Source: Tolypothrix carrinoi HA7290-LM1 (GTDB lineage Bacteria > Cyanobacteriota > Cyanobacteriia > Cyanobacteriales > Nostocaceae). Taken from it: a stretch of DNA of 21,863 nt. The translations under genes were made by a program, and so were the position numbers. Positions 2,219-21,404 of the stretch are shown in pieces. The notes under the pieces are model-generated. The model did not search any database. It was not told where the DNA came from and was given only the letters and a program-made list of their open reading frames with translations. The DNA is taken from positions 1 through 21,863 of the forward strand of contig JAHHIK010000128.1 of NCBI GenBank assembly GCA_019358935.1. The letters run 5' to 3'. The first letter of the stretch is position 1. The number at the start of each line of letters is the position of its first letter.

Positions 2219-4744
2219 TTAATCCCCTAGAACCAACAACATCCGCGCCTCAATTCCTTCCCAAGTTTTGGGTGACACCCGCACCGCTGCTTGTTTGCAC
2301 TGGATAATCAGGTAATTTGCATAGAGATAATTGTCCAGTGCCTTTGCTTCTTCCTCAGATAAATCGACCATTTCTGAGGTAAGCTTGAAAGCATTGAGCC
2401 AAGTCTGTATAATGCGGTCAGTAAATGCCCAATGTACTTGCTGAGGTTGTTTATCATCAGGAATTTGGGCTTTGAGTTCTTTGAGTCGGGCAATTAGCAC
2501 TGTAAAGTTTACAGATTGGAAAATTTTTATTTCATCCAATTCTGTAGCTAGGTTGATAAACTTGTCGATGGCGTTGGCGTTGGCGTTGGCGTTGGCTATG
2601 GCGTTGGCTATGGTGTCGGCTATGGCGTTGGCTATGGCTATGGCGTTGGCGTTGGCGTTGGCTATGGCTATGGCGTTGGCTATGGCGTTGGCGTCGGCTA
2701 TGGCGTTGGCTATGGCGTTGGCTATGGCTATGGCTATGGCTATGGCTATGGCTATGGCTATGGCTATGGCTATGGCGATCGCAATTGCACGTTTATCCAC
2801 GGGTTTATAATTACCTTCAGATCCATCTGTTACCTGTTCTGCCCAGCGCAGTAAGGTTTGTAATTTAGAAGTGCGGAATAGATTTGGGAATTTACGGGTT
2901 TTAATATACTTTTGTGCTTCCTTTTCCATCAATAACAGCAAGTTATCTGCACCACCGCGCATTAATCCAGCCACTAGCAAAAATACTTCTTTCCAGCGTT
3001 TATCAGTAAGGTGTTCTGCAACCAACTTTTCGATTAGTTGATGGTCGTCAATATATTGTGCTGTTAAATATTCCTGTAGCGTCAAATGGGAGAATGAATA
3101 AATATCCCGTTTTCGTTCTACTAAAATCCCCTGCTGAATAGCTATAGCATTCAAAACCGCCTCAGCCTCTAAATGCTTCGGTGCATTGTCATTACTTGCG
3201 AGGAACTCTTTTATTTGTCTCACTACTTCTTGGTGAGAAAAGAATAGTTTATCTGCTTCAAAGCCTAGATAAGCAATTTCCGAAAGCATGATTTTCTCTA
3301 AATCAACGCCGATTGTCTGATCGATACGGTCTTCTTGAATCCGTTTTTCGGCTCGCCATCTTCTCAGTAATATATCTAACGCATCACTGTATAGCGTAGA
3401 CCGATTTTTTGGCAAGTCCTGAGATTCGTCATATACTAAACAGATAAAAGTTAGTAACAGAGGAGTTTGGGCAAGTTCCTTAGTTGCTCTATATTCTGGT
3501 TGATTCAATAAGCGCCAGAACTTTTCAGCAGTTTCTACTTTCTTATCAACCTCTGAGGAAAACCAATTTTTAATAAACTGCTTAATTTGAGTATCATTAA
3601 ATTCGGCAATAGTAACTTTGGTAAAGTTATTAAAGTTACGACGATAGGCAGCGATACGGCAAGAGATAATAAACCGATTTTTCTGCCATTTCTCAACAAA
3701 ACTTTGAATTTGACTAATTGCCAAATCCATATTATCTGTTGGTACTTCATCCAAGCCATCGAGCACAATCAACAACTTGCCTTGCTCTAATGCTTTGGTT
3801 GTAAAATCTTCAGCAATTGGCAATTGACAATCACAAAATTCATTGAAAATCGTTTTTTTAATATGAATTTCTCTATCAGCAAATTGTTTCAAGTCAATAA
3901 AAACCGGAATACATTTATGCTGATATTCACTTTGATAATCCTTAAGTGCTTCAAGTCCTATTTTTCGTAAGAATGTAGACTTTCCCGCGCCAGGAGCGCC
4001 GAGTACCATCAAATATTGCTGCTGATTTGCTACTTTAATACCATCTTGTGTATTAGGCTTTTCATCTATAAATCCGCGTCTTCCTGCTTGGCGGTAAAGT
4101 TCCTGCAAGCCTTCGCCTGACTCAAATTTAGAAATATATGAATACTGTAAACATTGCACTGCTGTATAGATTGAATCCAAATCTACAGGTTTCTGCATTC
4201 CCAATATTTGCAGTTTATTGTGGCGTTTGTGGTAGTTAATAATGTATTGCTGAGATGCCCGATAAATTAATTTTTTTGTTTTCTCATCTAAAGGACGGTC
4301 AAGTATATTTATATAAAGGTCAGCGAAATGTTTAACTGCTTCATCTGGTGCAACTTCCGGCAGTGCAATCAGCTGATCTAGGCTGACATGATTAACTCCA
4401 GGCAATTCTAAAGAGCGTAAAATTGCATTCGCCGAACCTTCGACAACCACAACGCGGCTGAGTGTCCCTCCAATAGGTTTTAAAGAGAGATTTTGCAGTG
4501 CTTGGACAGTATCACCGACTGCCTCAGCAAGTTGATTTTTTCGCCGATCAATTAATGCCTGTCGATAAGCTTCATAAGATGAAAATTGGTTCGGTTCAAG
4601 CGGTGGATTGCTGGCATCTTTTTTGATTTTATTATCAGAACCCAAAGTGATAATTGCACGAATCTCTTCATTCCCCCGCGCATGTGTCAGAACTTCTTCT
4701 AGCAAAGGGTCGATTTTGGCAATCTGGCTTTCGTTAAGATTCAT
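2219..4744 (-). CDS. NACHT-domain STAND NTPase (bacterial NLR-like) with N-terminal I9/propeptide-like domain and C-terminal (Ala-X)n repeat
   Basis: Walker A GAPGAGKST, NACHT Walker B LLIVLDGLDE, IISCR sensor, TPLLL helical domain, FSHLTLQEY winged-helix motif, and the LGMQKPVDLDSIY pre-NACHT motif typical of cyanobacterial NACHTs; 841 aa. Confidence 0.92.
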   Translation of the reverse strand: MNLNESQIAKIDPLLEEVLTHARGNEEIRAIITLGSDNKIKKDASNPPLEPNQFSSYEAYRQALIDRRKNQLAEAVGDTVQALQNLSLKPIGGTLSRVVVVEGSANAILRSLELPGVNHVSLDQLIALPEVAPDEAVKHFADLYINILDRPLDEKTKKLIYRASQQYIINYHKRHNKLQILGMQKPVDLDSIYTAVQCLQYSYISKFESGEGLQELYRQAGRRGFIDEKPNTQDGIKVANQQQYLMVLGAPGAGKSTFLRKIGLEALKDYQSEYQHKCIPVFIDLKQFADREIHIKKTIFNEFCDCQLPIAEDFTTKALEQGKLLIVLDGLDEVPTDNMDLAISQIQSFVEKWQKNRFIISCRIAAYRRNFNNFTKVTIAEFNDTQIKQFIKNWFSSEVDKKVETAEKFWRLLNQPEYRATKELAQTPLLLTFICLVYDESQDLPKNRSTLYSDALDILLRRWRAEKRIQEDRIDQTIGVDLEKIMLSEIAYLGFEADKLFFSHQEVVRQIKEFLASNDNAPKHLEAEAVLNAIAIQQGILVERKRDIYSFSHLTLQEYLTAQYIDDHQLIEKLVAEHLTDKRWKEVFLLVAGLMRGGADNLLLLMEKEAQKYIKTRKFPNLFRTSKLQTLLRWAEQVTDGSEGNYKPVDKRAIAIAIAIAIAIAIAIAIAIAIANAIANAIADANAIANAIAIANANANAIAIANAIADTIANAIANANANANAIDKFINLATELDEIKIFQSVNFTVLIARLKELKAQIPDDKQPQQVHWAFTDRIIQTWLNAFKLTSEMVDLSEEEAKALDNYLYANYLIIQCKQAAVRVSPKTWEGIEARMLLVLGD
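2567..2788 (-). repeat. In-frame hexanucleotide repeat, 37 units (mainly GCCATA/GCCAAC), encoding (AI/AN)37
   Basis: Read directly: 11 consecutive AI, then mixed AN/AI/AD/TI. Confidence 0.95.
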
Positions 4745-4819
4745 ATAGCAATCCGAATTGAATCGTGAGAAAATACGTAGGTTGGATATTAAATATAAAC
4801 GTAAAATTTTATTCAGCCC

Positions 4820-4926
4820 TGGCGATTAGAAATCGCGGCTACACAGACAAAACCCGCCTGCGCGGGTTATTTTATTAAGTCCACGTAGGTGGACTTTGTT
4901 TGTGTAGTAGCGAATTCTATTCGCCC
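4820..4926. repeat. Multi-hairpin REP/MITE-like element between the protease and NACHT genes
   Basis: Terminal hairpins GCGATT-AGA-AATCGC and GCGAAT-TCT-ATTCGC. A long stem CTACACAGACAAA/TTTGTTTGTGTAG encloses ACCCGC..GCGGGT and AGTCCAC-GTAG-GTGGACT. Confidence 0.75.
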
Positions 4927-4945
4927 AATTGCTTTTCACTCTTAT

Positions 4946-6154
4946 TTAGGACTGGTATAGTGCCGCTGTCACCTGAATTAAACCTTGACCTTGGCGGTTC
5001 CGGTCGTGTCCCAAATCTAGACAAGTCGAAAGCAGTGCGTCAAACAAACGCCCTACCGTAATTTGTTTGTTGTACTTCTCTAATATTAAAGCTGCTACAC
5101 CAGAAACGATTGGGGTAGCCATCGAAGTTCCATCCCAAGCTTCGTAACCGCCACCTTGAACAGATGAATAAACTCCTTCACCAGGAGCAACTAAATAGGG
5201 TACGTTATAAAGATGATTATTGATAGATATCGTGCCACTGCCACTAAAATAGGCAACTTGACCGCCAAAGTTTGTAGCACCTACCGAAACCGCGCCTTTA
5301 CAATTTGCTGGCGCATCAGTTCTGTTAAATCCATCATTGCCAATAGCGCAAACCGGCAATATTCCTACTGCCAGCAAAGTATCAATTAAATCGCTAATTC
5401 CATCATAATATTGAGGAATGCCAGCGGAAATATTCACAATATTCACATCTACGCGAGTTCCCAGCCAGTCAAGCCATAAAAACAAGTCTGATAATTTGCC
5501 TGTACCGCGAGGAATGAGAACGCCATTGATCAGTTTGGTTTCTGGTGCTACCCCAATCTGTTGACCGCAAATCAATCCCGCAACGTGAGTACCATGACCA
5601 TCGGTATCTTGGCAAGGTGTTGACTGGATTTGCTGTGTTCTGTCATTAAAACTATAAGATTCAGTTACTTTGCCTTGCAATTGGGAGTGGCTGTTGTCGA
5701 TACCCGTGTCCAGAACAGCAACGGTGATGTTTCTGCCTGTGCCTTCAAATCCCTGTTGACGTGCTATGTTAAGGGCGATCGCATCCAAATGCCATAAATC
5801 TGCTGCTGTGATTTTATCTTTACTAGCTGTTACATTGCGTTCTGGCTGAATCAACTCAATCGGCTGGTCGCGTAATATCAAAGCGTTGGGCAACTCGCGA
5901 CGCATTTTTACAGCTTCTTCATCCGACATTTCTACAATAGCGGCTCCAGTAATTCCTGAGTAAGTAGGATGCTTTGAGACGTTTTCTGCATCTTCTAACC
6001 AGTGTTCAATTTCTCTGTGAACTGGATCTTCTTCCCAAAAACTAACCACTTCCGCAACTTGCCCTGGACGACTTTCTGAGGTGAATTTTCGGGATTGCAG
6101 TTTTAGCGATCGCGCTATTGATGTCGCCTTTGGTCGAATAATATAAATACTCAT
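4946..6154 (-). CDS. Subtilisin-family (S8) serine peptidase with N-terminal prodomain, no signal peptide
   Basis: Complete triad VAVLDTG (Asp), HGTHVAG (His), GTSMATP (Ser) and oxyanion Asn in AIGNDG. Start placed at MSIYIIRPK (6154) because the 24-codon upstream extension overlaps a hairpin. Confidence 0.92.
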   Translation of the reverse strand: MSIYIIRPKATSIARSLKLQSRKFTSESRPGQVAEVVSFWEEDPVHREIEHWLEDAENVSKHPTYSGITGAAIVEMSDEEAVKMRRELPNALILRDQPIELIQPERNVTASKDKITAADLWHLDAIALNIARQQGFEGTGRNITVAVLDTGIDNSHSQLQGKVTESYSFNDRTQQIQSTPCQDTDGHGTHVAGLICGQQIGVAPETKLINGVLIPRGTGKLSDLFLWLDWLGTRVDVNIVNISAGIPQYYDGISDLIDTLLAVGILPVCAIGNDGFNRTDAPANCKGAVSVGATNFGGQVAYFSGSGTISINNHLYNVPYLVAPGEGVYSSVQGGGYEAWDGTSMATPIVSGVAALILEKYNKQITVGRLFDALLSTCLDLGHDRNRQGQGLIQVTAALYQS

Positions 6155-6218: not shown

Positions 6219-6238
6219 TAGAGCATACCAGGTTCTTT

Positions 6239-7447
6239 TTAAACCACCGCTGCTGTAGCTTTCAATTCAAAAATCTTCTCAATCACATCTTCTACCACCT
6301 TATCGGGTGTAGAAGCACCAGAGGTAATTCCTACAACAATTTCATTATCTGGCAACCAGTTTTCTGTTATCTTCAACTCACCATTTAATAGTCGATGCTC
6401 AATCGCATTTCCTGATTTAATTCGCTCTACACAATCGATATGATAAGAAGGAATTTTCTGCTCCACGGCAATTTGTTGTAATTGAGTAGTATTCGAGGAA
6501 TTAAATCCACCAATTACCACCATTAAATTCAGCTTTTGTTCAACTAAACCCAACATCGCGTCTTGCCGTTCTTGGGTAGCATCGCAAATAGTATTAAAGC
6601 TTTGAAAGTGCTGATTTAAATCAATGGGACCATACTTTTTCAACATGGTACGCTCAAACAGTTTACCAAGTTGCTCGGTTTCGCCTTTGAGCATCGTTGT
6701 TTGATTGGCGATACCAACTCTTTCTAAATCTTTATCGGGGTCAAATCCGGCGCTAACTGCTTTGCTAAATTTTGCGAGAAATTCTTGACGATTCCCACCA
6801 TTAAGAATGTAGTCAGCAACATATTCAGCTTCTTGCATATTCAGCACAATTAGATATTTACCAGCAAAGGAACTAGTAGCAATCGTTTCTTCGTGCTTAT
6901 ATTTGCCGTGAATAATTGAAGTGTAATCGCCTTTTTTATGTTTTTCAACTGTGTTCCAAACTTTCGACACCCAAGGACAAGTAGTATCAACAATTTTGCA
7001 GCCTTTATCGTTAAGAATCTGCATTTCTTGGACGCTTGCGCCAAAAGCAGGTAATATAACTACATCACCAGTTTCTACCACAGAAAAGTCTTTTTTACCA
7101 GCATCAAAAGGGATAAATCCTACTTGCATTTCCAGCATTCGCTGATTTACAGAAGGATTGTGAATAATTTCATTAGTAATCCAAATTCTTTCTCTAGGGA
7201 AATGCTTGCGGGTTTCATACGCCATTGCCACAGCACGTTCGACACCCCAACAAAAGCCAAAAGCTTGCGCTAGTTGAATGGTTGTATTACCGCGTTTTAA
7301 AGTGTAATTGTTATCGCGGATTTGTTGAATTAAATTGCTTTGATATTCGGATTGCAACTGGGTGGCAACTTCGGCTTGATGACCAAACCCTTTGCGATGA
7401 TAGTTTTCTGAATGTTGGAGCGATCGCTTAAAAGCTTTTGTATCCAT
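6239..7447 (-). CDS. ispH: 4-hydroxy-3-methylbut-2-enyl diphosphate reductase
   Basis: [37 protein letters not shown] and GITSGASTP; cyanobacterial N-terminal extension. Confidence 0.97.
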
Positions 7448-7496
7448 CGTTTTTTCTTTAGAGACTCCTCTGTCTTATTGTAGGAGCGCAAAGACA

Positions 7497-8137
7497 CCAT
7501 TTAAGCGGGAGAGTGGGGAGTGGGAGAGTGGGGGAGGGGGAAGACAAGGGAGACAAGGGAGAGGGGGGAGACAAGGAAGACAAGGAGGCAAACTCCCCGT
7601 GCAAGAAAGCAAGAGTGCCCCTTGTCCCCTTGTCCCCTTGTCACCTTGTCACCTTGTCCCCCTTGTCCCCCTTGTCCCCCTTGTCACCTTGTCACCTTGT
7701 CCCCCTTGTCCCCCTTGTCCCCCTTGTCCCCCTTGTCCCCCTTGTCCCCCTTATCCCCCTTATCCAGTTCTATCTGAGTGTACATTTGCAAAGCGGAACG
7801 CCAGACAAGATAGCCTTGGGGACTTAGGTGTAAGCCATTTAAGCGGGAGAGTGGGGAGTGGGGGAGACAAGGGAGACAAGGGAGAGGGGGGAGACAAGGG
7901 AGAGGGGGGAGACAAGGAAGACGAGGAGGCAAACTCCCCCTGCAAGAAAGCAAGAGTGCCCCTTGTCCCCTTGTCCCCTTGTCACCTTGTCCCCCTTGTC
8001 CCCCTTGTCCCCCTTGTCCCCCTTGTCCCCCTTGTCCCCCTTGTCCCCCTTATCCCCCTTATCCAATTCAATCTGAGTGTACATTTGCAAAGCGGAACGC
8101 CAGACAAGATAGCCTTGGGGACTTAGGTGTAAGCCAT
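7497..8137. repeat. Tandem duplication (7497..7834 and 7835..8133, CCAT at all three junctions) rich in CCCCTTGTC/GACAAGGG repeats
   Basis: Both copies start CCATTTAAGCGGGAGAGTGGGGAGTGGG and end TCTGAGTGTACATTTGCAAAGCGGAACGCCAGACAAGATAGCCTTGGGGACTTAGGTGTAAG. Confidence 0.93.
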
Positions 8138-8894
8138 CGGTAGAGAATTCGGGACGAAGATTACCTTGCTTGTTGGTAAACAAAGGATGCAAGTTGAGAT
8201 ATTTGACATTTGCTTTTGTGGCTATATCTTGCAGCTGCTGATTCAGCTTGCGAATGCGACTGTTAGGAATAGCCAAGAGTTTCTCTCGTCTTTCCCAAGT
8301 TGCTTCTTCTCCTCCATGCGGCAAAATCGATTCAACAACAATTTGCGCTTTTGGATGCACCTTTCTCAGGTAAGTGATAATTTGTTGCTGATTCTCTAAA
8401 ATTGTCTCATCGCTTGCACCCCGAATCAGGTCATTAATGCCAATCATCACAAAAATCGTATGAGGCTGGGTGCGGTCAAATAAATTTAATCTTTTTAATA
8501 GTCCCTCGCTAGTTTCTCCAGAAATTCCCTGATTTAGCCAATTTCTGTCTTCAGGTAATAACTCTGTAGGAAACCACAATGAGAGAGAATCTCCCGCGAG
8601 GATATTTAAATTTTGGGGAGGTTTCTCAGCTTTGGCTTTGGCTTCTTTTTTGAGGACATCTACCCACTGCGGATAACTGAATTTATGGCGAGGTCCTAGT
8701 AATGGTGTAATTTTAGCAGGTGTGACTTGGGGTTGACTGTTGTGCTTGACTGGTGTCGCAGAATGTGCAGACCAAAAAAAAGCGGTCAAACCTTGCTGTC
8801 GTAAAAGTAGCAAGGCGATCGCTAACATCAGTATCCCGTTGGTTACTACGGAGAAAAATGCCCAGGTAGGAAAAATTTTTGCTGGAGTAGACAC
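7839..8894 (-). CDS. SGNH/GDSL hydrolase with N-terminal membrane anchor; repeat-derived C-terminal tail
   Basis: Blocks GDSL, NQGISGE, GIND and DGLH; hydrophobic N-terminal segment; GTG start; (DKG)n tail. Confidence 0.9.
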   Translation of the reverse strand: MSTPAKIFPTWAFFSVVTNGILMLAIALLLLRQQGLTAFFWSAHSATPVKHNSQPQVTPAKITPLLGPRHKFSYPQWVDVLKKEAKAKAEKPPQNLNILAGDSLSLWFPTELLPEDRNWLNQGISGETSEGLLKRLNLFDRTQPHTIFVMIGINDLIRGASDETILENQQQIITYLRKVHPKAQIVVESILPHGGEEATWERREKLLAIPNSRIRKLNQQLQDIATKANVKYLNLHPLFTNKQGNLRPEFSTDGLHLSPQGYLVWRSALQMYTQIELDKGDKGDKGDKGDKGDKGDKGDKGDKVTRGQGDKGHSCFLAGGVCLLVFLVSPLSLVSPLSLVSLVSPTPHSPA

Positions 8895-8990
8895 AAGGCG
8901 CGATATTTACTAATTCTTTGAATCAGATTTTAGATGATTTAAATCGAATTAGAGCAATACGAGCGCAGATTTATGAAAATATCGAGCTTC

Positions 8991-9024
8991 ATATCCCTGA
9001 CAAGTTTTACGAAGTCGGGGATAT
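8991..9024. repeat. REP-like inverted repeat downstream of amtB (possible terminator)
   Basis: ATATCCCTGAC-N12-GTCGGGGATAT. Confidence 0.5.
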
Positions 9025-9084
9025 TGTATGAACACGCTCTTGTAAACGGACTGCTCAAGATATCGTCAGCAGTCAGAAATCGCA

Positions 9085-10506
9085 TTACCTATTAGTAACA
9101 CTAATGCGCTCTCCGAATTCTTCGTTGTATCCTTCTTCGCCATGTTCGTTGATATCCATGCCTTGCAGTTCGGCTTCTTCTTTGATTCGCAACCCGACTG
9201 TGACATCTAGAATCTTCAAAATAATCCAGGTGCCGACAGCAGCAATGATATAGGCAACGACAATGGCGATAATTTGCGTTACCAGTTGACCGGGATTGCC
9301 AAATAACAAGCCATTTTTCCCTGCTGAGTTGACTGTAGTGGTGGCAAAGATTCCTGTGAGAATCGCTCCGATTGTCCCACCGACACCATGCACGGGAAAG
9401 GTATCTAAAGCATCGTCAATATTGACTTTGTGCTTGAAGCTGACGGCATAAAAGCAAGCAAACGCTGTAATACCGCCAATTAATATCGCAGCTAGAGGTG
9501 TGACAAATCCGGCGGCTGGGGTGATACCAACTAATCCGGCAACTGCACCTGTGGCTGCACCAACTGCTGTTGGTTTACCGCGCAAGACTTTTTCCAGGAT
9601 TAGCCACATTAAAGCTGCCGAAGCTGCACCTGTGTTGGTGGCGACAAATGCCGCTGTTGCCAAACCGCCAGAAGCTAAGGCACTACCTGCGTTGAAGCCG
9701 AACCAGCCAAACCACAGCAAGCCAGCACCCAACAAGATGAAGGGAACGTTGTGCGGAGGGCTAAGACGGTCGGGATAGGTTTTCCGGGGTCCGAGGTACA
9801 TGGCGGCGACGAGGGCAGAAACACCGGAACTAATATGCACGACTGTGCCCCCTGCAAAGTCTAGGGCGCCCAATCCACCAGCCAAGCCCAAAAATCCGCC
9901 TTTAGCCCATACCATGTGCGCTAGGGGAGAGTAAATAAACGTAGACCACAGCAGCACAAATAATGAGTAAGCGGTGAAGTTCATCCGCTCGGCGATCGCA
10001 CCACTAATCAACGCTGGGGTGATAATGGCAAACATTGCCTGATAAATCATGAATGCCTGGTGGGGAATTGTCGGCGCATAGGAAACTATTTCCGCCGGGT
10101 TTGTTCCTTTGAGATAATCGGTTGTCTCTAAGCCGACATTGTTCAACCCAAACCACTGTAATCCGCCGATGAAGGGATTACCTGGTGCAAAAGCGAGGCT
10201 GTAGCCCCACAAAATCCAGGTGACTCCAACAATCGCCATCAGCACGAAGCTCATCATCAATGTATTTAGGACGTTGCGCGATCGCACAAATCCACCATAG
10301 AAAAACGCTAGTCCAGGTGTCATCAACAATACGAGTGCTGCACAAATCAGCATAAATGCTGTATCGGCAGCCGTTTGAGCATTAGTAATTGCTGCGTTTA
10401 CATCTGTGGGTGCTGCGAAGGCATTACCCATCAACGGTCCACCTAGAAGCAATGAGGCGATCGCCCCTATTATCACAACTTTTTTCAACACTTCTTTTTT
10501 GTTCAT
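9085..10506 (-). CDS. amtB: Ammonium transporter, AmtB-type
   Basis: MTPGLAFFYGG, DFAGGTVVH, GWFGFNAGS, DDALDTFPVHG and HGEEGY; signal-peptide-like N-terminus. The start is uncertain (10560, 10506 or a slightly later GTG/TTG). Confidence 0.92.
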   Translation of the reverse strand: MNKKEVLKKVVIIGAIASLLLGGPLMGNAFAAPTDVNAAITNAQTAADTAFMLICAALVLLMTPGLAFFYGGFVRSRNVLNTLMMSFVLMAIVGVTWILWGYSLAFAPGNPFIGGLQWFGLNNVGLETTDYLKGTNPAEIVSYAPTIPHQAFMIYQAMFAIITPALISGAIAERMNFTAYSLFVLLWSTFIYSPLAHMVWAKGGFLGLAGGLGALDFAGGTVVHISSGVSALVAAMYLGPRKTYPDRLSPPHNVPFILLGAGLLWFGWFGFNAGSALASGGLATAAFVATNTGAASAALMWLILEKVLRGKPTAVGAATGAVAGLVGITPAAGFVTPLAAILIGGITAFACFYAVSFKHKVNIDDALDTFPVHGVGGTIGAILTGIFATTTVNSAGKNGLLFGNPGQLVTQIIAIVVAYIIAAVGTWIILKILDVTVGLRIKEEAELQGMDINEHGEEGYNEEFGERISVTNR

Positions 10507-11243
10507 GAGTACCAACAATTTTCTGTTTTTACCTGAATTTGAGTACTTTTTGATACTCATTTTTATCTTGGAAGTTACTCAAATTTCGTTCTAGGGAATC
10601 TACCTGAAATATACTCCTTTTTCTAGTTGCAAAATTTTAAATCAATGTGCATTTTAGGAGGATTTGGCAGCTTTTTTTGACAGCAATATTTAACCATACA
10701 ATTTTTAAAATTTCTTTGCATTTTTTCGAGAAAATGTTAATTTTTGTGTTGATGAAGTTTATAGTCAACTGTTTTTAACTCAAGGACAAAGAGCTTATCC
10801 CTTAGTTGTTGAAGTTAATAACAAGAGTGCTACCTCTCTAGATATTACGGATTTTCATCATAATTCATTATTATGTATTTTATATAACAGTCAAGTCTCC
10901 TTCATTGACTCTTTAAAAATTATTCTTTCAAAACATAATTTTCTCAAAGGGTAACTGAGCATAAACGATAAGATGTCCGTAATTTTATCTAGCCATTTTC
11001 AATTTTCAATGCTTCATTGGTCATATATTCTCAGAAAGATACGCTCTTATAAGGGCAATCAATTTCTGCAATACACTTTAACTATCGATTTCGGAAAAAT
11101 TACCTTTTTTAATATCAACACCTGAAATGCAACAATGCACAAACGCCTCTAAACAGAATTCATGAGCATGATTTCACAAGAAAACTTTTGGTGAATCCAC
11201 GAATAAAGTAGATTGATTTTCTATTACGCCAATCAGGAATTCT

Positions 11244-11257: not shown

Positions 11258-11417
11258 TATTTTTGGGTTTTTGTCTTTACCTGCACGTACCCAAAACGGT
11301 AAATAAAGTAACTGTATCCGTTACAGTGTCAGTATTTCCAGACATCGGGATATAAAAGTCAAGATATTATTAAATTTCGCTAAAAAAGTTTAATAAATTT
11401 TTACATACAGATAATAG

Positions 11418-11662
11418 GTAATTGGGCATGGGGAATGGTGAGTCCAGCGCTGCGGGAGGGTTTCCCTCCGCAGGCGACTGGCGAACCCGAAGGGGGCATG
11501 GGGCAATGGGCACGCTCGATTGGGGGCACGCTCGATTGGGGGCTGGGAATGAGAGATTTTTTCCATGCCCCATTCCCTATGCCCAATGCCCCATGCCCAT
11601 GCCCCATGACGGCAGGTGCTACAACGGAGGGGACCTCCGCAACGCACTGCCTCCCCCATGCC
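11418..11662. repeat. Convergent STRR heptamer tracts (TGGGCAT/ATGCCCC type) containing two SDR/NIS-like hairpin elements (11437..11494, 11609..11653) and a 16-bp duplication (11508..11539)
   Basis: Read directly; element 2 is ACGGCAGGTGCTACAACGGAGGGGACCTCCGCAACGCACTGCCTC. Confidence 0.85.
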
Positions 11663-11671
11663 ACCTCTTTT

Positions 11672-12187
11672 TCACATCTGTGACAAATATTGCTGATAGC
11701 CTAGTTGTTCTAACTTGGATTGCTTTGCCATTACCGATTCGCAGAGATTTTGGCGATATTTTTTGACTTTTTCGAGTAATTCGGGTTGCTGGGTAGCGAG
11801 AATTTGTACTGCCAAAAGACCTGCGTTTTTTGCATTACCTATTGCCACGGTCGCAACTGGGATACCCGCAGGCATCTGTACAATAGAATACAGTGAATCA
11901 AGCCCTTGTAAGTGACGGGTGGGGACGGGAACACCGATAACCGGAAGTGGAGTTAAAGATGCAACCATTCCGGGAAGATGAGCAGCACCGCCAGCACCGG
12001 CGATAATCACTTTTATGCCGCGTTGGTGTGCAAGTTGTGCGTATTCAACCATGCGTTCTGGGGTACGATGGGCGCTAACAATGGCAACTTCGGTTTGAAT
12101 GCCAAATTCTTCACAAATAGCGATCGCATCCTGCATGATGGGTAAATCGGAATCGCTGCCCATGATAATACCGATAAGGGGGGTCAT
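11672..12187 (-). CDS. purE: N5-carboxyaminoimidazole ribonucleotide mutase
   Basis: [27 protein letters not shown] and [14 protein letters not shown]. True start is MTPLIG at 12187; the longer ORF is translated repeat. Confidence 0.97.
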
Positions 12188-17948: not shown

Positions 17949-18737
17949 ATGTGCCGATTACTTGGCTACCTTGGTTCACCTGTTTCTCTAGAACATCTAT
18001 TATACAAACCAGAACACTCGCTGATAGTCCAGAGTTACCAACCCCGCGAAATGATTTCAGGGGTAGTCAACGCTGATGGCTTTGGTGTTGGCTGGTATCA
18101 TCCGGAAAAAAATACTGAACCCTTTACCTACAAAAATACACTGCCGATTTGGAACGATATTAATCTACCGAGTCTCAGCCGTTTTGTTGAGTCTAAATGT
18201 GTAGTGGCTTACGATCGCAGTGCTACACAAGGTCAAGCATTGGATTTTGCTAATTGCCAACCGTTCAACTATCAAAATTTGCTATTCATTCACAATGGCA
18301 GAATAGAGAATTTCCGCAAAACATTACACAGAAAAATTCGTAGTATTCTAACACCTGAATTTTACGAACTAATCAATGGGAGTACTGATTCTGAGCATAT
18401 TTTTGCGCTAATGCTTTCTCTGTGGCAAGAAAATCAACATCTAACTTTAGAATCTGCTTTACGCAAGACATTATTAACGCTTTTGGATTTAGCCCAACGT
18501 GATGAAGTAGATGTTTCCGCAAATGTGATAATTAGCGATGGACATCGGTTAATTGCTTCACGCTTTGCTTCAAGTTCACCTGCTCCGTCTCTTTACTGGT
18601 TGCGGGACGATCCCATTTTCCCTAACTCGGTAATTATTGCATCTGAACCGCTATTTGCGAGTAATTGGACTGCTTTCCCGGAAAATAGCATTATGACTGT
18701 GGAAGAAGACTGTGATATCCAAATTGAGAAAATCTAA
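17949..18737 (+). CDS. egtC: Gamma-glutamyl-hercynylcysteine sulfoxide hydrolase (Ntn-hydrolase)
   Basis: N-terminal nucleophile MCRL, NADGFGVGWY, NCQPF, HNG, GSTDSE and IASEP; adjacent to egtB and egtD. Confidence 0.92.
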   Translation: MCRLLGYLGSPVSLEHLLYKPEHSLIVQSYQPREMISGVVNADGFGVGWYHPEKNTEPFTYKNTLPIWNDINLPSLSRFVESKCVVAYDRSATQGQALDFANCQPFNYQNLLFIHNGRIENFRKTLHRKIRSILTPEFYELINGSTDSEHIFALMLSLWQENQHLTLESALRKTLLTLLDLAQRDEVDVSANVIISDGHRLIASRFASSSPAPSLYWLRDDPIFPNSVIIASEPLFASNWTAFPENSIMTVEEDCDIQIEKI

Positions 18738-20073
18738 CTTACAACAAGCAATTTCTCTTGCTTTCTATCAATGTCGCGCTAACACTCTGGCTTTGTTCGC
18801 GGATATGGACGAAGCCACATTTCGCTGTCAGGTTCATCCCGATTTTAGCCCTGTAGGGTGGCACTTGGGACATATTGCCTACACCGAGTCTTTATGGCTA
18901 CTAGAACGCAGTGCAGGTAATGCTTGTTTATTTCCGCAATACCGCAAATTTTTTGCCGCTGATGGTTTACCCAAATCACAGCGAGTCCAATTACCAAACC
19001 TGGAAGAAATTTATTATTACTTAGACACAGTTAGAAAACAAGTCTTAGATTACCTAGAAGTAGCTGATTTACATCAGCAAGAGCGTCTTTGGCGCTTTTT
19101 GCTTCAGCACGAAAGCCAACATTGCGAAACGATCGCCTTTTTGTTGGAATTAGCCAAGAGGAATGAACAAGGAGGACAAGGGGACAAGGGGACAAGGGGA
19201 CAAGGAGGACAAGGAAGACAAGGAGGACAAGGAGGAATTTCTTCTTCATCTCCCCCATCCCCCTTATCTCCCCTATCCCCCTTGTCTCCCTCATCCCCAT
19301 CTCTCATCAAAATCCCAGCGGGTGAGTTTGAAATTGGTAGCAATTCGATTGATGCTCTTGATAACGAGCGTCCTGCACATAACGTATATTTAGACACTTA
19401 TTATATTGACCGCTACCCTGTGACTTGCGGGCAGTATCGCGTATTTATGGAAGCGGGAGGCTACGAAAATCCGGGTTTTTGGTCGAAGGCTGGCTGGGAA
19501 TGGTTGCAAATAGAGCAGGTAGGGGAACCGCTTTATTGGCACGATGTTTTATCTGCGGATAATCACCCAGTTTGTGGTGTCAGTTGGTACGAAGCAGAAG
19601 CTTATTGCCGATTTGTCGGTAAGAGATTACCCACAGAAGCGGAGTGGGAAAAAGCAGTTAGTTGGGATGCAGACATGAATTGTCGCCGCATCTATCCTTG
19701 GGGTGATGAAGAACCAACATCGCAACATTGTAATTGCGTTGATGTAGCATCTCCACATAAGAATCGCCTAACTATAAACACAACACCAGTAGATGCTTAC
19801 CCAGAAGGGCAAAGTGCTTATGGTTTGTATGATACTTTGGGTAACGTCTGGGAATGGACTGCATCTTGGTTTGATGGCTACGACGGTTTTGAGATGTATC
19901 CTTATATAGGTTACTCGCAAGTTTATTTTGACCAACAACACCGAGTTTTAAAAGGTGGTAGTTGGGCAACTAGTCCTTTTGCACTGCGTTCTAGTTTTCG
20001 CAACTGGTATCACCCCAGTGTGCGCCAGATTTTTGCGGGGTTTCGATGCGTTTTGGTAATGGGGAATGGGTAA
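18712..20073 (+). CDS. egtB: Ergothioneine sulfoxide synthase (DinB_2 + FGE-sulfatase domains)
   Basis: SPVGWHLGH, iron motif HESQHCE, NERPAH, RLPTEAEWEKA, GNVWEW and FAGFRC; GTG start overlapping egtC. Confidence 0.9.
   Translation: MISKLRKSNLQQAISLAFYQCRANTLALFADMDEATFRCQVHPDFSPVGWHLGHIAYTESLWLLERSAGNACLFPQYRKFFAADGLPKSQRVQLPNLEEIYYYLDTVRKQVLDYLEVADLHQQERLWRFLLQHESQHCETIAFLLELAKRNEQGGQGDKGTRGQGGQGRQGGQGGISSSSPPSPLSPLSPLSPSSPSLIKIPAGEFEIGSNSIDALDNERPAHNVYLDTYYIDRYPVTCGQYRVFMEAGGYENPGFWSKAGWEWLQIEQVGEPLYWHDVLSADNHPVCGVSWYEAEAYCRFVGKRLPTEAEWEKAVSWDADMNCRRIYPWGDEEPTSQHCNCVDVASPHKNRLTINTTPVDAYPEGQSAYGLYDTLGNVWEWTASWFDGYDGFEMYPYIGYSQVYFDQQHRVLKGGSWATSPFALRSSFRNWYHPSVRQIFAGFRCVLVMGNG
19167..19303 (+). 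repeat. In-frame GACAAGG(A/G) / TCCCC repeat tract in the egtB interdomain linker
   Basis: Encodes QGGQGDKGTRGQGGQGRQGGQGGISSSSPPSPLSPLSPLSPSSPS; the two halves are imperfectly complementary. Confidence 0.88.
19739..19762 (-). mobile_element. 24-nt SDR5-like element inserted in a HIP1 site within egtB
   Basis: Minus strand GCGAT[TCTTATGTGGAGATGCTACATCAA]CGC; hairpin GATG-CTA-CATC. Confidence 0.7.
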
Positions 20074-20208
20074 TGGGGAATAGGGAATAGGGAATGGGTA
20101 ATGGGTAATGGGTAATGGGTAATGGGAAAAAACGCACATCACTATTACCAATTCGCAATTCGCAATTCGCAATTACCTATTACCAATTCGCGATTCGCAA
20201 TTCGCAAT
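20055..20208. repeat. STRR heptamer arrays (GGGTAAT/GGGAATA)n and (TTCGCAA)n
   Basis: Read directly; the first array supplies the last codons and stop of egtB. Confidence 0.9.
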
Positions 20209-20369
20209 CCTGGCAAATTTAATGTAAAAACCACAAAACATAGCCTTCATGCTTCTGTAATCTAGCTCAAGCGTGATTTACTTTGATGTCGCTTCGTGTT
20301 TCACTAGCTTTGGTTGGAGGTTTGCACAAAAGACAATGCAACTCATCATACCAAGTCATCGGAGGTTTA

Positions 20370-21404
20370 ATGTCAATATCTAATGCTCTCGGCAGTAAGG
20401 TTACTTCCCAAAATACTATTGAAAAACGCTTAGAAATACAGCGTTTGCTAGAACCAACCTTGGTTGTTTCCTCTAGCGCTGGGAGTGATGTAGTTAAGGG
20501 GTTAACTCAAACACTCAAATCCCTACCCCCTCGTTACTTCTACGACGATCGCGGATCTGAGTTATTTGAGCAAATCTGCGAGTTACCAGAATATTACGTT
20601 ACGCGAACAGAAACGGCAATTTTACAAAAGTGTGCGGGTGAAATTGCCAAAATTACAGGGGATTGCGAACTGGTGGAACTTGGCAGCGGTAGCTCAACCA
20701 AAACCCGTATTATACTCGATGCGTACAAGCAGTTAGGCTATCCTTTGCGTTATCTGCCGATTGACGTGAGTGCAGGTATGTTAGAAACTAGTGCCAAGCA
20801 GCTATTAACAGATTATCCCTCATTGCAAGTTCATGCGATCGCCGGAACTTATGAAATGGCACTAGCGCAACTGATACCAAAGCAATTACCCAGCAGAATG
20901 ATTTGTTTCATCGGTAGCACGTTGGGTAATCTCAATCCTCAAGAGTGTGATGTGTTTTTATCGGAAATTAAAGATGCTTTGCAAGTGGGAGAGTATTTTT
21001 TATTAGGGGTAGACTTGCAAAAACCGAAACACATCTTAGAAGCAGCTTATGACGATAGCCAAGGTGTAACGGCAGCGTTTAACCTGAATATGTTGGATCA
21101 TTTAAATCGACGGTTTGAGGGCAATTTTGACACAACGCAGTTTGAACATTTAGCGTTTTATAATGAAACTGAAAATCAGATTGAGATGCATTTGAAAAGT
21201 ATGTGCGAGCAAACTGTGGAATTACGCGCTCTCAATCTCAATGTTCATTTTCAGCAAAATGAAACAATCCTCACGGAAATTTCCCGTAAATTCGACATCA
21301 ATATTATTAAGCAGCAACTTGCAGCAAAAGGTTTGATACCGCTTGATGTGTGGAAAGATGCAAATCAGTGGTTTGGTTTGTTACTTTGCCAATTGCAAGC
21401 ATAG
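20370..21404 (+). CDS. egtD: L-histidine N-alpha-methyltransferase
   Basis: KSLPPRYFYDDRGSELFEQICELPEYY, VELGSGSSTKT, GSTLGN, AYDDSQGVTAAFNLN and TEISRKF. Start placed at the ATG at 20370, after GGAGG (20361..20365). Confidence 0.95.
   Translation: MSISNALGSKVTSQNTIEKRLEIQRLLEPTLVVSSSAGSDVVKGLTQTLKSLPPRYFYDDRGSELFEQICELPEYYVTRTETAILQKCAGEIAKITGDCELVELGSGSSTKTRIILDAYKQLGYPLRYLPIDVSAGMLETSAKQLLTDYPSLQVHAIAGTYEMALAQLIPKQLPSRMICFIGSTLGNLNPQECDVFLSEIKDALQVGEYFLLGVDLQKPKHILEAAYDDSQGVTAAFNLNMLDHLNRRFEGNFDTTQFEHLAFYNETENQIEMHLKSMCEQTVELRALNLNVHFQQNETILTEISRKFDINIIKQQLAAKGLIPLDVWKDANQWFGLLLCQLQA

Follow-up and report, generated by a model that had tools for sequence, protein, structure and literature searches.

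Why does a NACHT protein of a cyanobacterium begin with a domain that looks like the propeptide of a subtilisin, when a subtilisin-like protease is encoded just upstream? The question is posed by contig JAHHIK010000128.1 of Tolypothrix carrinoi HA7290-LM1 (21,863 nucleotides, hereafter the window, to which all coordinates refer), where an S8 subtilase gene and a NACHT gene follow one another on the minus strand. Positions 4355–4744 are exactly residues 1–130 of the 841-residue NACHT open reading frame; the protease is numbered from the ATG at 6154, with a longer in-frame ATG at 6226. The account that we favour, at a little under even confidence, is that this N-terminal domain is a probably uncleavable, NACHT-tethered inhibitor of propeptide type that gates a cytoplasmic protease.

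An AlphaFold model of the domain made from 115 sequences (predicted local distance difference test score 92.8) finds its best structure match among 48,161 chains in the propeptide of Tk-SP (3afg_B; Z 11.0, root mean square deviation (RMSD) 2.5, 86 aligned residues). Rows 1–10 are all subtilase propeptides or pro-forms; rows 2–10 have Z-scores of 7.8–6.3, and values below 8 mean little alone, but the top row is clearly ahead and the match list is coherent. Foldseek places the same propeptides at the top with weak E-values (best 0.011). NACHT residues 1–129 are thus predicted to adopt the subtilisin propeptide (I9) fold, as the initial annotation had proposed from the sequence by eye. Its further remark, that an early strand and a long helical insert are common to the domain and to the prodomain of the neighbouring protease, agrees with the AlphaFold models of both, in which strand–helix–strand follows; two N-terminal helices of the NACHT-fused domain are missing from the neighbour's prodomain. 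Sequence searches are quieter. Even at E-values as high as 1, residues 1–130 match none of the Pfam families, Inhibitor_I9 (PF05922) included, and domain profiles retrieve nothing below E 0.5 from the PDB, where a deeper profile gives three Tk-subtilisin propeptide chains at E 1.3–1.4. A second copy of the domain was not found in the organism's own genome.

The proposed kinship with the neighbour's prodomain rested on two stretches, NACHT residues 93–128 and protease residues 66–101, which lie where they had been placed. Between single sequences the likeness is within chance (pairwise BLASTP E 0.24). Between family profiles, with 115 domain sequences compared with columns 1–112 of an alignment of 93 protease sequences, hhalign recovers the same register as the alignment by eye, at probability 74.8, pairwise E 2.6e-5 and a score of 32.9 over 65 columns. 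The controls stay lower: 16.2 is the highest score from forty column shuffles and 16.1 the highest from seven mature-domain windows, and a reversed alignment scores 12.9. The profile-level similarity to propeptides, whose lack had been named, together with a failure to bind or inhibit, as the ground for abandoning the idea, is present. Chance resemblance is ruled out by these controls together with the structure comparison. The stronger wording, that the domain mirrors the neighbouring protease's own prodomain, goes too far: the profile match stands, but prodomains of a second subtilase family match equally well (32.8, 114 columns), as do the partners of that family (32.5). Because of this equal match the domain is an old propeptide paralogue, its tail resembling the processing site of the neighbouring protease, and not a fresh copy, and recent duplication of the neighbour's prodomain is ruled out.

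The tail of the domain is where the NACHT fusions part from their relatives. In the predicted model, residue 129 pairs with the last residue of five propeptide or I9 chains (4i0w_C, 4ne9_C, 9ues_A, 8c4x_B and 1v5i_B), which we take to be P1; the aligned rows of 3bgo_P and 9fid_D extend to residue 131 of the domain. The hhalign register sets Pro129 of the domain opposite Ile102 of the protease, whose predicted processing site has Ile at P1 in 92 of 93 sequences and Pro at P2' in all 93. Leu101 and Ile102 fall on Leu6 and Ile7 of the B. clausii ISP precursor if the alignment is gapless there, and these two residues are P2 and P1 of ISP (PMC6220982; this and the other papers cited here are used in excerpt). 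Leu-Ile/Val at P2–P1 occurs in 91/93 proteases, 49/109 stand-alone partners and 4/7 non-NACHT fusions, and in none of 27 diverse or 65 close NACHT fusions. Pro stands at P1 in 0/93 proteases, 14/109 stand-alone partners, 1/7 other fusions, 14/27 diverse NACHT fusions and 65/65 close ones, and the NACHT fusions retain a hydrophobic P4 (26/27 diverse, 65/65 close). For these counts 11 of 120 stand-alone partners with tails below nine residues were dropped, five short members of the NACHT branch were counted apart, and two of 67 close fusions were missed by the pattern. To judge from its sequence, the tail of the NACHT fusions looks still built for the cleft and not for cutting. That a proline right after the Ile-Ala-Leu motif would disfavour cleavage had been suggested, and both the place of Pro129 at the predicted P1 and the want of a cleavable site throughout the NACHT fusions speak for it; in B. 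clausii ISP cleavage is prevented by a proline beside the scissile bond, and a proline at P1 is described as highly unlikely to be cut (PMC6220982).

Linkage to the protease is tight. Loci were gathered from searches by domain and by protease, with duplicates removed; 30 of 38 family matches were obtained, plus two more, and most are close kin and not independent. Of 54 distinct loci that hold this S8 family, 49 have the domain directly downstream, fused to NACHT in 47 (seen over only 1.5 kb in L071–L099) and stand-alone in two; of the remaining S8 loci, two are cut off by the end of a contig, the fusion in one case lying on a different contig, and three are without the domain. Stop and start codons of protease and partner overlap or nearly abut in many loci. 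They overlap in the close relatives L001 and L002 at the point where the window carries a dispersed palindromic repeat, and in a third locus, L003, another insert occupies this position. Within the window's repeat lie hairpins resembling terminators, and the repeat may uncouple the NACHT gene from the protease gene; a promoter and terminator scan gave signal near shuffle levels. The unit is patchy, occurring in 4/10 genomes of the genus, 9/101 relatives, 38/389 genomes of the family and 12/401 of the phylum, one of the last being a distant second-family match; no relatives were found in 401 genomes of the phylum of G464, and a further candidate locus, L009, was a false match. Among sequencing runs, the sequence turned up in the likely source run and otherwise in small shares only. 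Among titled records, the closest relatives of the window are Hassallia, Tolypothrix and Scytonema at 91–95% identity.

Beyond these loci, a profile search finds 374 clusters at 50% identity in a family that has no name and consists mostly of stand-alone proteins of about 135 residues. Among the best 150 clusters, 115 members have at most 170 residues (some are fragments), 11 have 171–400 and 24 are longer. The 35 members above 170 residues comprise 22 NACHT fusions, two TIR fusions, one helix-hairpin-helix fusion and ten without a Pfam family at 1e-5, two of these being NACHT-fusion fragments by sequence. The search thus bears out the expectation of stand-alone homologues (about 130–145 residues, directly behind the same S8 family in the two stand-alone loci viewed) and of other fusion partners, namely TIR and TIR with an additional weak EAD7 match. 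Seven non-NACHT fusions (P0024, P0070, P0026, P0088, P0162, P0097 and P0105) carry TIR, TIR with the weak EAD7 match or unknown helical domains; given the cleavable tail in four of them, the protease might cut such partners free. Wherever a NACHT fusion has a named source, that source is a cyanobacterium. In a quick, midpoint-rooted tree of 151 domains, 23 of 26 NACHT fusions sit on one branch (SH-aLRT 97) with five short members, among stand-alone forms. This agrees with the earlier idea of a stand-alone inhibitor that was fused later, but a tree of this kind does not establish the order.

Protease and receptor both have their characteristic motifs intact. The S8 enzyme belongs to S8A by its Asp149–His187–Ser344 triad, oxyanion Asn273 and subtilisin fold, and the triad is invariant in 93/93 proteases. 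No signal-peptide-like segment was detected (hydropathy maximum 0.64 across the first 40 residues). Its model, residues 1–402, superposes on unprocessed pro-subtilisins (Z 43.6 with pro-Tk-subtilisin) with a complete prodomain in the usual place, and named relatives come also from Ardenticatenaceae, Caldilineaceae, TA06 and Kiloniellales. The partner has the tripartite layout of bacterial NLR-related proteins with an intact NACHT module (PF05729, 61.7 bits against a cut-off of 26.7; NCH2, 64.6 bits); among fusions above 500 residues, Walker A is present in 82/83 and Walker B in 81/83. Towards its C terminus a low-complexity segment has 24–76% identity to 14 relatives and in 12 of these comparisons ranks below the other five regions, which makes it a candidate fast-evolving sensor. 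It is encoded by hexanucleotide-type repeats whose length and wording differ across all relatives compared. Few regions are as conserved as the I9-like domain, which has 91% identity in the three closest relatives against 80–82% for the NTPase.

From the fold, the linkage and the change in the tail, which prediction or sequence shows, we infer inhibition, gating, trigger, substrate and a defence role as follows. As a propeptide-like fold encoded behind a protease without an export signal, the domain would likely hold that protease off until the receptor fires; in effect it would be a spare subtilisin propeptide that binds and blocks the enzyme encoded just upstream, and fusion to NACHT would put the enzyme under NTPase control. 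By analogy with subtilase biology, the protease would fold, cut itself between Leu101-Ile102 and Gln103 and shed its own prodomain, after which the partner domain would occupy the vacated site. Because the fused versions lack a cleavable tail (in the window's protein P1 is Pro), the domain would stay joined to NACHT and the protease would remain tethered to the resting receptor. Ligand sensing and ATP-driven NACHT oligomerization would then withdraw the brake and free a broad cytoplasmic protease; in a setting of conflict, the probable outcome would be death or arrest of the cell. We regard binding of the domain in the protease cleft as probable, put control of the protease by NACHT at an even chance, and hold a role in defence more tentatively still. 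The scores of complex prediction with full-length protease and domain alignments were 0.00 and 0.11, where the mark is 0.32; the prodomain was retained there and probably filled the site.

Several observations weigh against this account. The protease already comes with one complete prodomain, so an additional one may do something other than inhibit, and known bacterial NLR-type proteins carry an N-terminal effector enzyme or adaptor, not an inhibitor (bioRxiv 10.1101/2022.07.19.500537). Only 14 of the 27 diverse NACHT fusions have Pro at P1; because the NACHT fusions share descent, most of them in one clade, loss of the cleavage site may amount to one or two changes, and Fisher values overstate it. 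PADLOC at 1e-15 matches 5 of 96 neighbours at 22 loci, all generic (two methyltransferases, two kinases and one Fic), with no defence-island context; no conserved substrate gene was found beside the pair, and viral contigs and plasmids gave no match. Three genomes of one genus, in assemblies of 90–470 contigs, retain no more of the partner than its first codons, and their S8 frames are open with the triad intact. Their proteases carry Met345Ile and Pro348Ser, changes present in one of 93 aligned proteases, itself beginning like theirs. To go by the residues, this fits a protease weakened after loss of its brake, or drift after loss of an activator; any attenuation would probably be one event. 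At L057:61–560 the S8 gene is followed by a remnant of the partner's start, repeats and then a truncated NACHT start with a different N terminus.

The alternative that survives best, though we consider it unlikely, makes the domain an activating adaptor that docks the zymogen on a NACHT oligomer, pairing with or displacing the prodomain, so that clustering would lead to self-processing, much as in CARD–caspase or effector-associated-domain coupling. The domain does occupy the N-terminal effector or adaptor slot of the NACHT protein, and related domains on a core component and an adjacent enzyme are the effector-associated-domain pattern (PMC7159879). One family member is fused to TIR with the weak EAD7 match, an uncleavable tail would equally suit a reusable platform, and partnerless S8 genes persist. 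EAD1–11 give no Pfam match on the domain, and only the gene pattern is similar. What counts against an adaptor is that 115 of the 150 top members have at most 170 residues and no oligomerizing module, two of them seen in DNA behind the same protease family, and that the tail resembles a substrate and conserves P4 and P2, which speaks for a place in the catalytic cleft.

Slightly less probable is that the NACHT module is a passenger, joined by read-through to a constitutive inhibitor or in-trans folding chaperone of the stand-alone sort and exerting no control over the protease. There was probably one main fusion event, the neighbourhoods are housekeeping, and the neighbour's prodomain lacks the N-terminal helices of the partner, which fits a chaperone role; moreover, the second subtilase family manages with a stand-alone partner and no fused NACHT in 12/12 loci examined. 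A mere passenger, however, would hardly explain a fusion that several cyanobacterial families have retained, its Walker motifs intact, or a tail that departs from the stand-alone consensus in all 92 fusions counted. Decay also runs in parallel: NACHT is visibly broken in four lineages (L034, L060/L061, L068 and L112), and S8 is broken in each. The order of decay counts in favour of the inhibitor: a broken S8 beside an intact I9-like domain occurs at five loci (L034, L060, L061, L063 and L112). In L068 both genes are wrecked. The second S8 family, of about 450 residues, is common in Nostocales (L100–L110 and L039) with its propeptide-like partner downstream, whose tail frequently has Pro at P2. 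Both S8 families are adjacent and convergent in L100, and in one of the 12 second-family loci (L113:5262–8102) an unrelated 946-residue NACHT gene lies 6 bp upstream of the S8 gene and its partner, possibly an independent link.

Least probable is a decoy or guard, in which the domain is bait whose displacement or attack, by a foreign protease or protease inhibitor, would be registered by NACHT and signalled via a partner encoded elsewhere: the NACHT protein has no catalytic effector domain and, by inference from plant NLR decoys, a propeptide-like bait is plausible as a sensor of protease activity, but the I9-like domain is highly conserved while the C-terminal repeat is most variable, as for a C-terminal sensor, and no conserved downstream effector gene was found at the loci.

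Set beside known systems, the inhibitor that we favour has parts with precedent. Subtilisin propeptides and I9 inhibitors (PF05922; Tk-SP, Tk-subtilisin, Pleurotus POIA1, CspB and PCSK9) have the predicted fold and strand order in common with the window's domain, and a C-terminal tail in register with P1; the domain differs in its failure to match PF05922, in its long helical insert, in its position at the N terminus of an NTPase and in a chain that continues past P1 through a proline. IetAS, an anti-phage system of an AAA ATPase and an S8 protease, is also a two-gene pair of P-loop NTPase and protease. Membership was rejected, with the S8 protein scoring 23.1 bits against the cut-off of 900 for NF042956 (IteS equivalog) and 25–30 bits against PADLOC IetS, and the NTPase of the window is instead a NACHT with an I9-like domain.

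Another comparison is the pair PopC and PopD: PopD is small and stand-alone, and popD adjoins popC. In Myxococcus xanthus these are a signal-less subtilisin-like protease and its small binding partner (PopD, PF27478), and PopD blocks secretion of PopC and is degraded on starvation; the excerpt of that paper does not mention a NACHT fusion of PopD (PMC6434023). Our domain likewise stands beside a signal-less subtilisin-like protease in the 49 linked loci, the signal having been checked in the window's protease. An Atlas look-alike cluster has PopD in 85% of its members (score 0.93; 163/256 features, against 170 typical of one family), and a query with the second-family partner gives PopD at 0.89, neither family being anchored to PopD. 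That Pfam has a PF27478 model shows that curation of a related stand-alone family has taken place. PF27478 is absent from the precomputed Pfam columns of relatives, whose release may predate it, and no PopC or PopD entries turned up in the structure and database searches, Foldseek and PDB profiles included. We found no structural account of PopD in a literature search that left subscription papers mostly uncovered.

Bacterial NLR-related NACHT proteins, which are common and multi-copy in cyanobacteria, share the order of N-terminal domain, NACHT and variable C-terminal region; their N-terminal peptidases are caspase, trypsin, transglutaminase-like and deSUMOylating, and the main text never contains the string 'subtil' (Kibby et al., bioRxiv 10.1101/2022.07.19.500537). 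In the window a propeptide-like domain takes this place, and the protease is encoded by a gene of its own. STAND-fused protease–effector modules (PMC12642450) and fungal S8/NACHT/WD40 HET-Q2-like proteins (PMC8851545) also couple a STAND NTPase to a protease, S8 in the fungal case, but there the protease itself is fused to the sensor with a substrate gene alongside (MBL, hydrolase, Pepco or gasdermin), whereas the window fuses the propeptide-like domain and shows no conserved substrate gene. ISP with its LIPY/F pro-peptide is a cytoplasmic S8 protease with Leu-Ile at P2–P1 and a proline that makes the active-site peptide uncleavable (PMC6220982); that is a short peptide in cis, whereas a whole folded domain would act in trans here. 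A stand-alone protease with a spare propeptide is thus a known or recurring kind of pair. What appears new is that a propeptide-like domain has been joined to an NLR-type NTPase and has lost its cleavage site; no account of such a fusion was found in the literature, with subscription papers mostly uncovered and the tables of Kibby et al. possibly listing such proteins.

If the inhibitor reading is right, a receptor with an N-terminal protease brake would follow a logic unlike that of the bacterial NLR-like proteins in the papers cited, which switch on a fused enzyme or recruit one, and an output would be assigned to one of the many cyanobacterial NACHT proteins without a visible effector. A bolder extension, speculative in our view, is NLR-type signalling by de-repression, in which an uncleavable inhibitor in the effector slot would hold an armed subtilase that is freed on firing, the domain serving as a portable module that couples one protease family to different sensors (TIR and other partners). 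The two-gene unit is small and found in cultured Nostocales, and nature supplies controls in the stand-alone partners with cleavable tails, the fusions with Pro at P1 and the lineage without a partner. Even apart from immunity, an unnamed family of at least 374 clusters would gain a fold and a likely function.

Coordinates of the S8–NACHT locus in the window
Feature	Position	Strand	Basis or remark
ispH	6239–7447	minus	First of three consecutive genes, followed by the S8 protease and the NACHT gene
S8 subtilase, 402 residues	4946–6154	minus	PF00082, E 3e-42; ATG at 6154 common to relatives
Complete prodomain of the protease, residues 1–102	5849–6154	minus	Predicted site Leu101-Ile102 / Gln103-Pro104
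Dispersed palindromic repeat between the S8 and NACHT genes	4745–4945		41 genome matches including its own
NACHT protein, 841 residues	2219–4744	minus	I9-like domain, NACHT NTPase, helical domains, low-complexity repeat, NCH2
Predicted propeptide-like (I9-fold) domain, residues 1–129	4358–4744	minus	AlphaFold model, structure match and family profile
Substrate-like tail, Asp123–Glu130	4355–4378	minus	Pro129 (4358–4360) at predicted P1
NACHT NTPase domain, residues 244–397	3554–4015	minus	PF05729, E 1e-16; Walker A and B intact
Hypervariable Ala/Ile/Asn-rich low-complexity segment, about residues 651–730	2555–2794	minus	Comparison of identity by region
NCH2 C-terminal helical domain, residues 751–837	2234–2494	minus	PF22727, E 9e-18

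The S8–NACHT unit lies among housekeeping genes that differ between lineages. The neighbourhood of ispH and S8 found in the window (6239–10560) recurs in L056–L058, from a genus of another family, and a GDSL-like gene precedes ispH also in L057 and L058; this suggests that the place beside ispH is an old shared site of the protease gene. Elsewhere in the window, a 172-residue pyridoxal phosphate (PLP)-enzyme frame at 113–631 corresponds to a 453-residue counterpart in L002 and is broken or frameshifted. Three genes at 17949–21404 resemble what is presumably an ergothioneine cluster (EgtC-, EgtB- and EgtD-like, labelled from sequence features only). Short tandem repeats at 1558–1839, 7500–8100, 11390–11770 and 19030–19400 give rise to spurious open reading frames, and such repeats lengthen the C terminus of the gene at 7839–8894 and the middle of that at 18712–20073.

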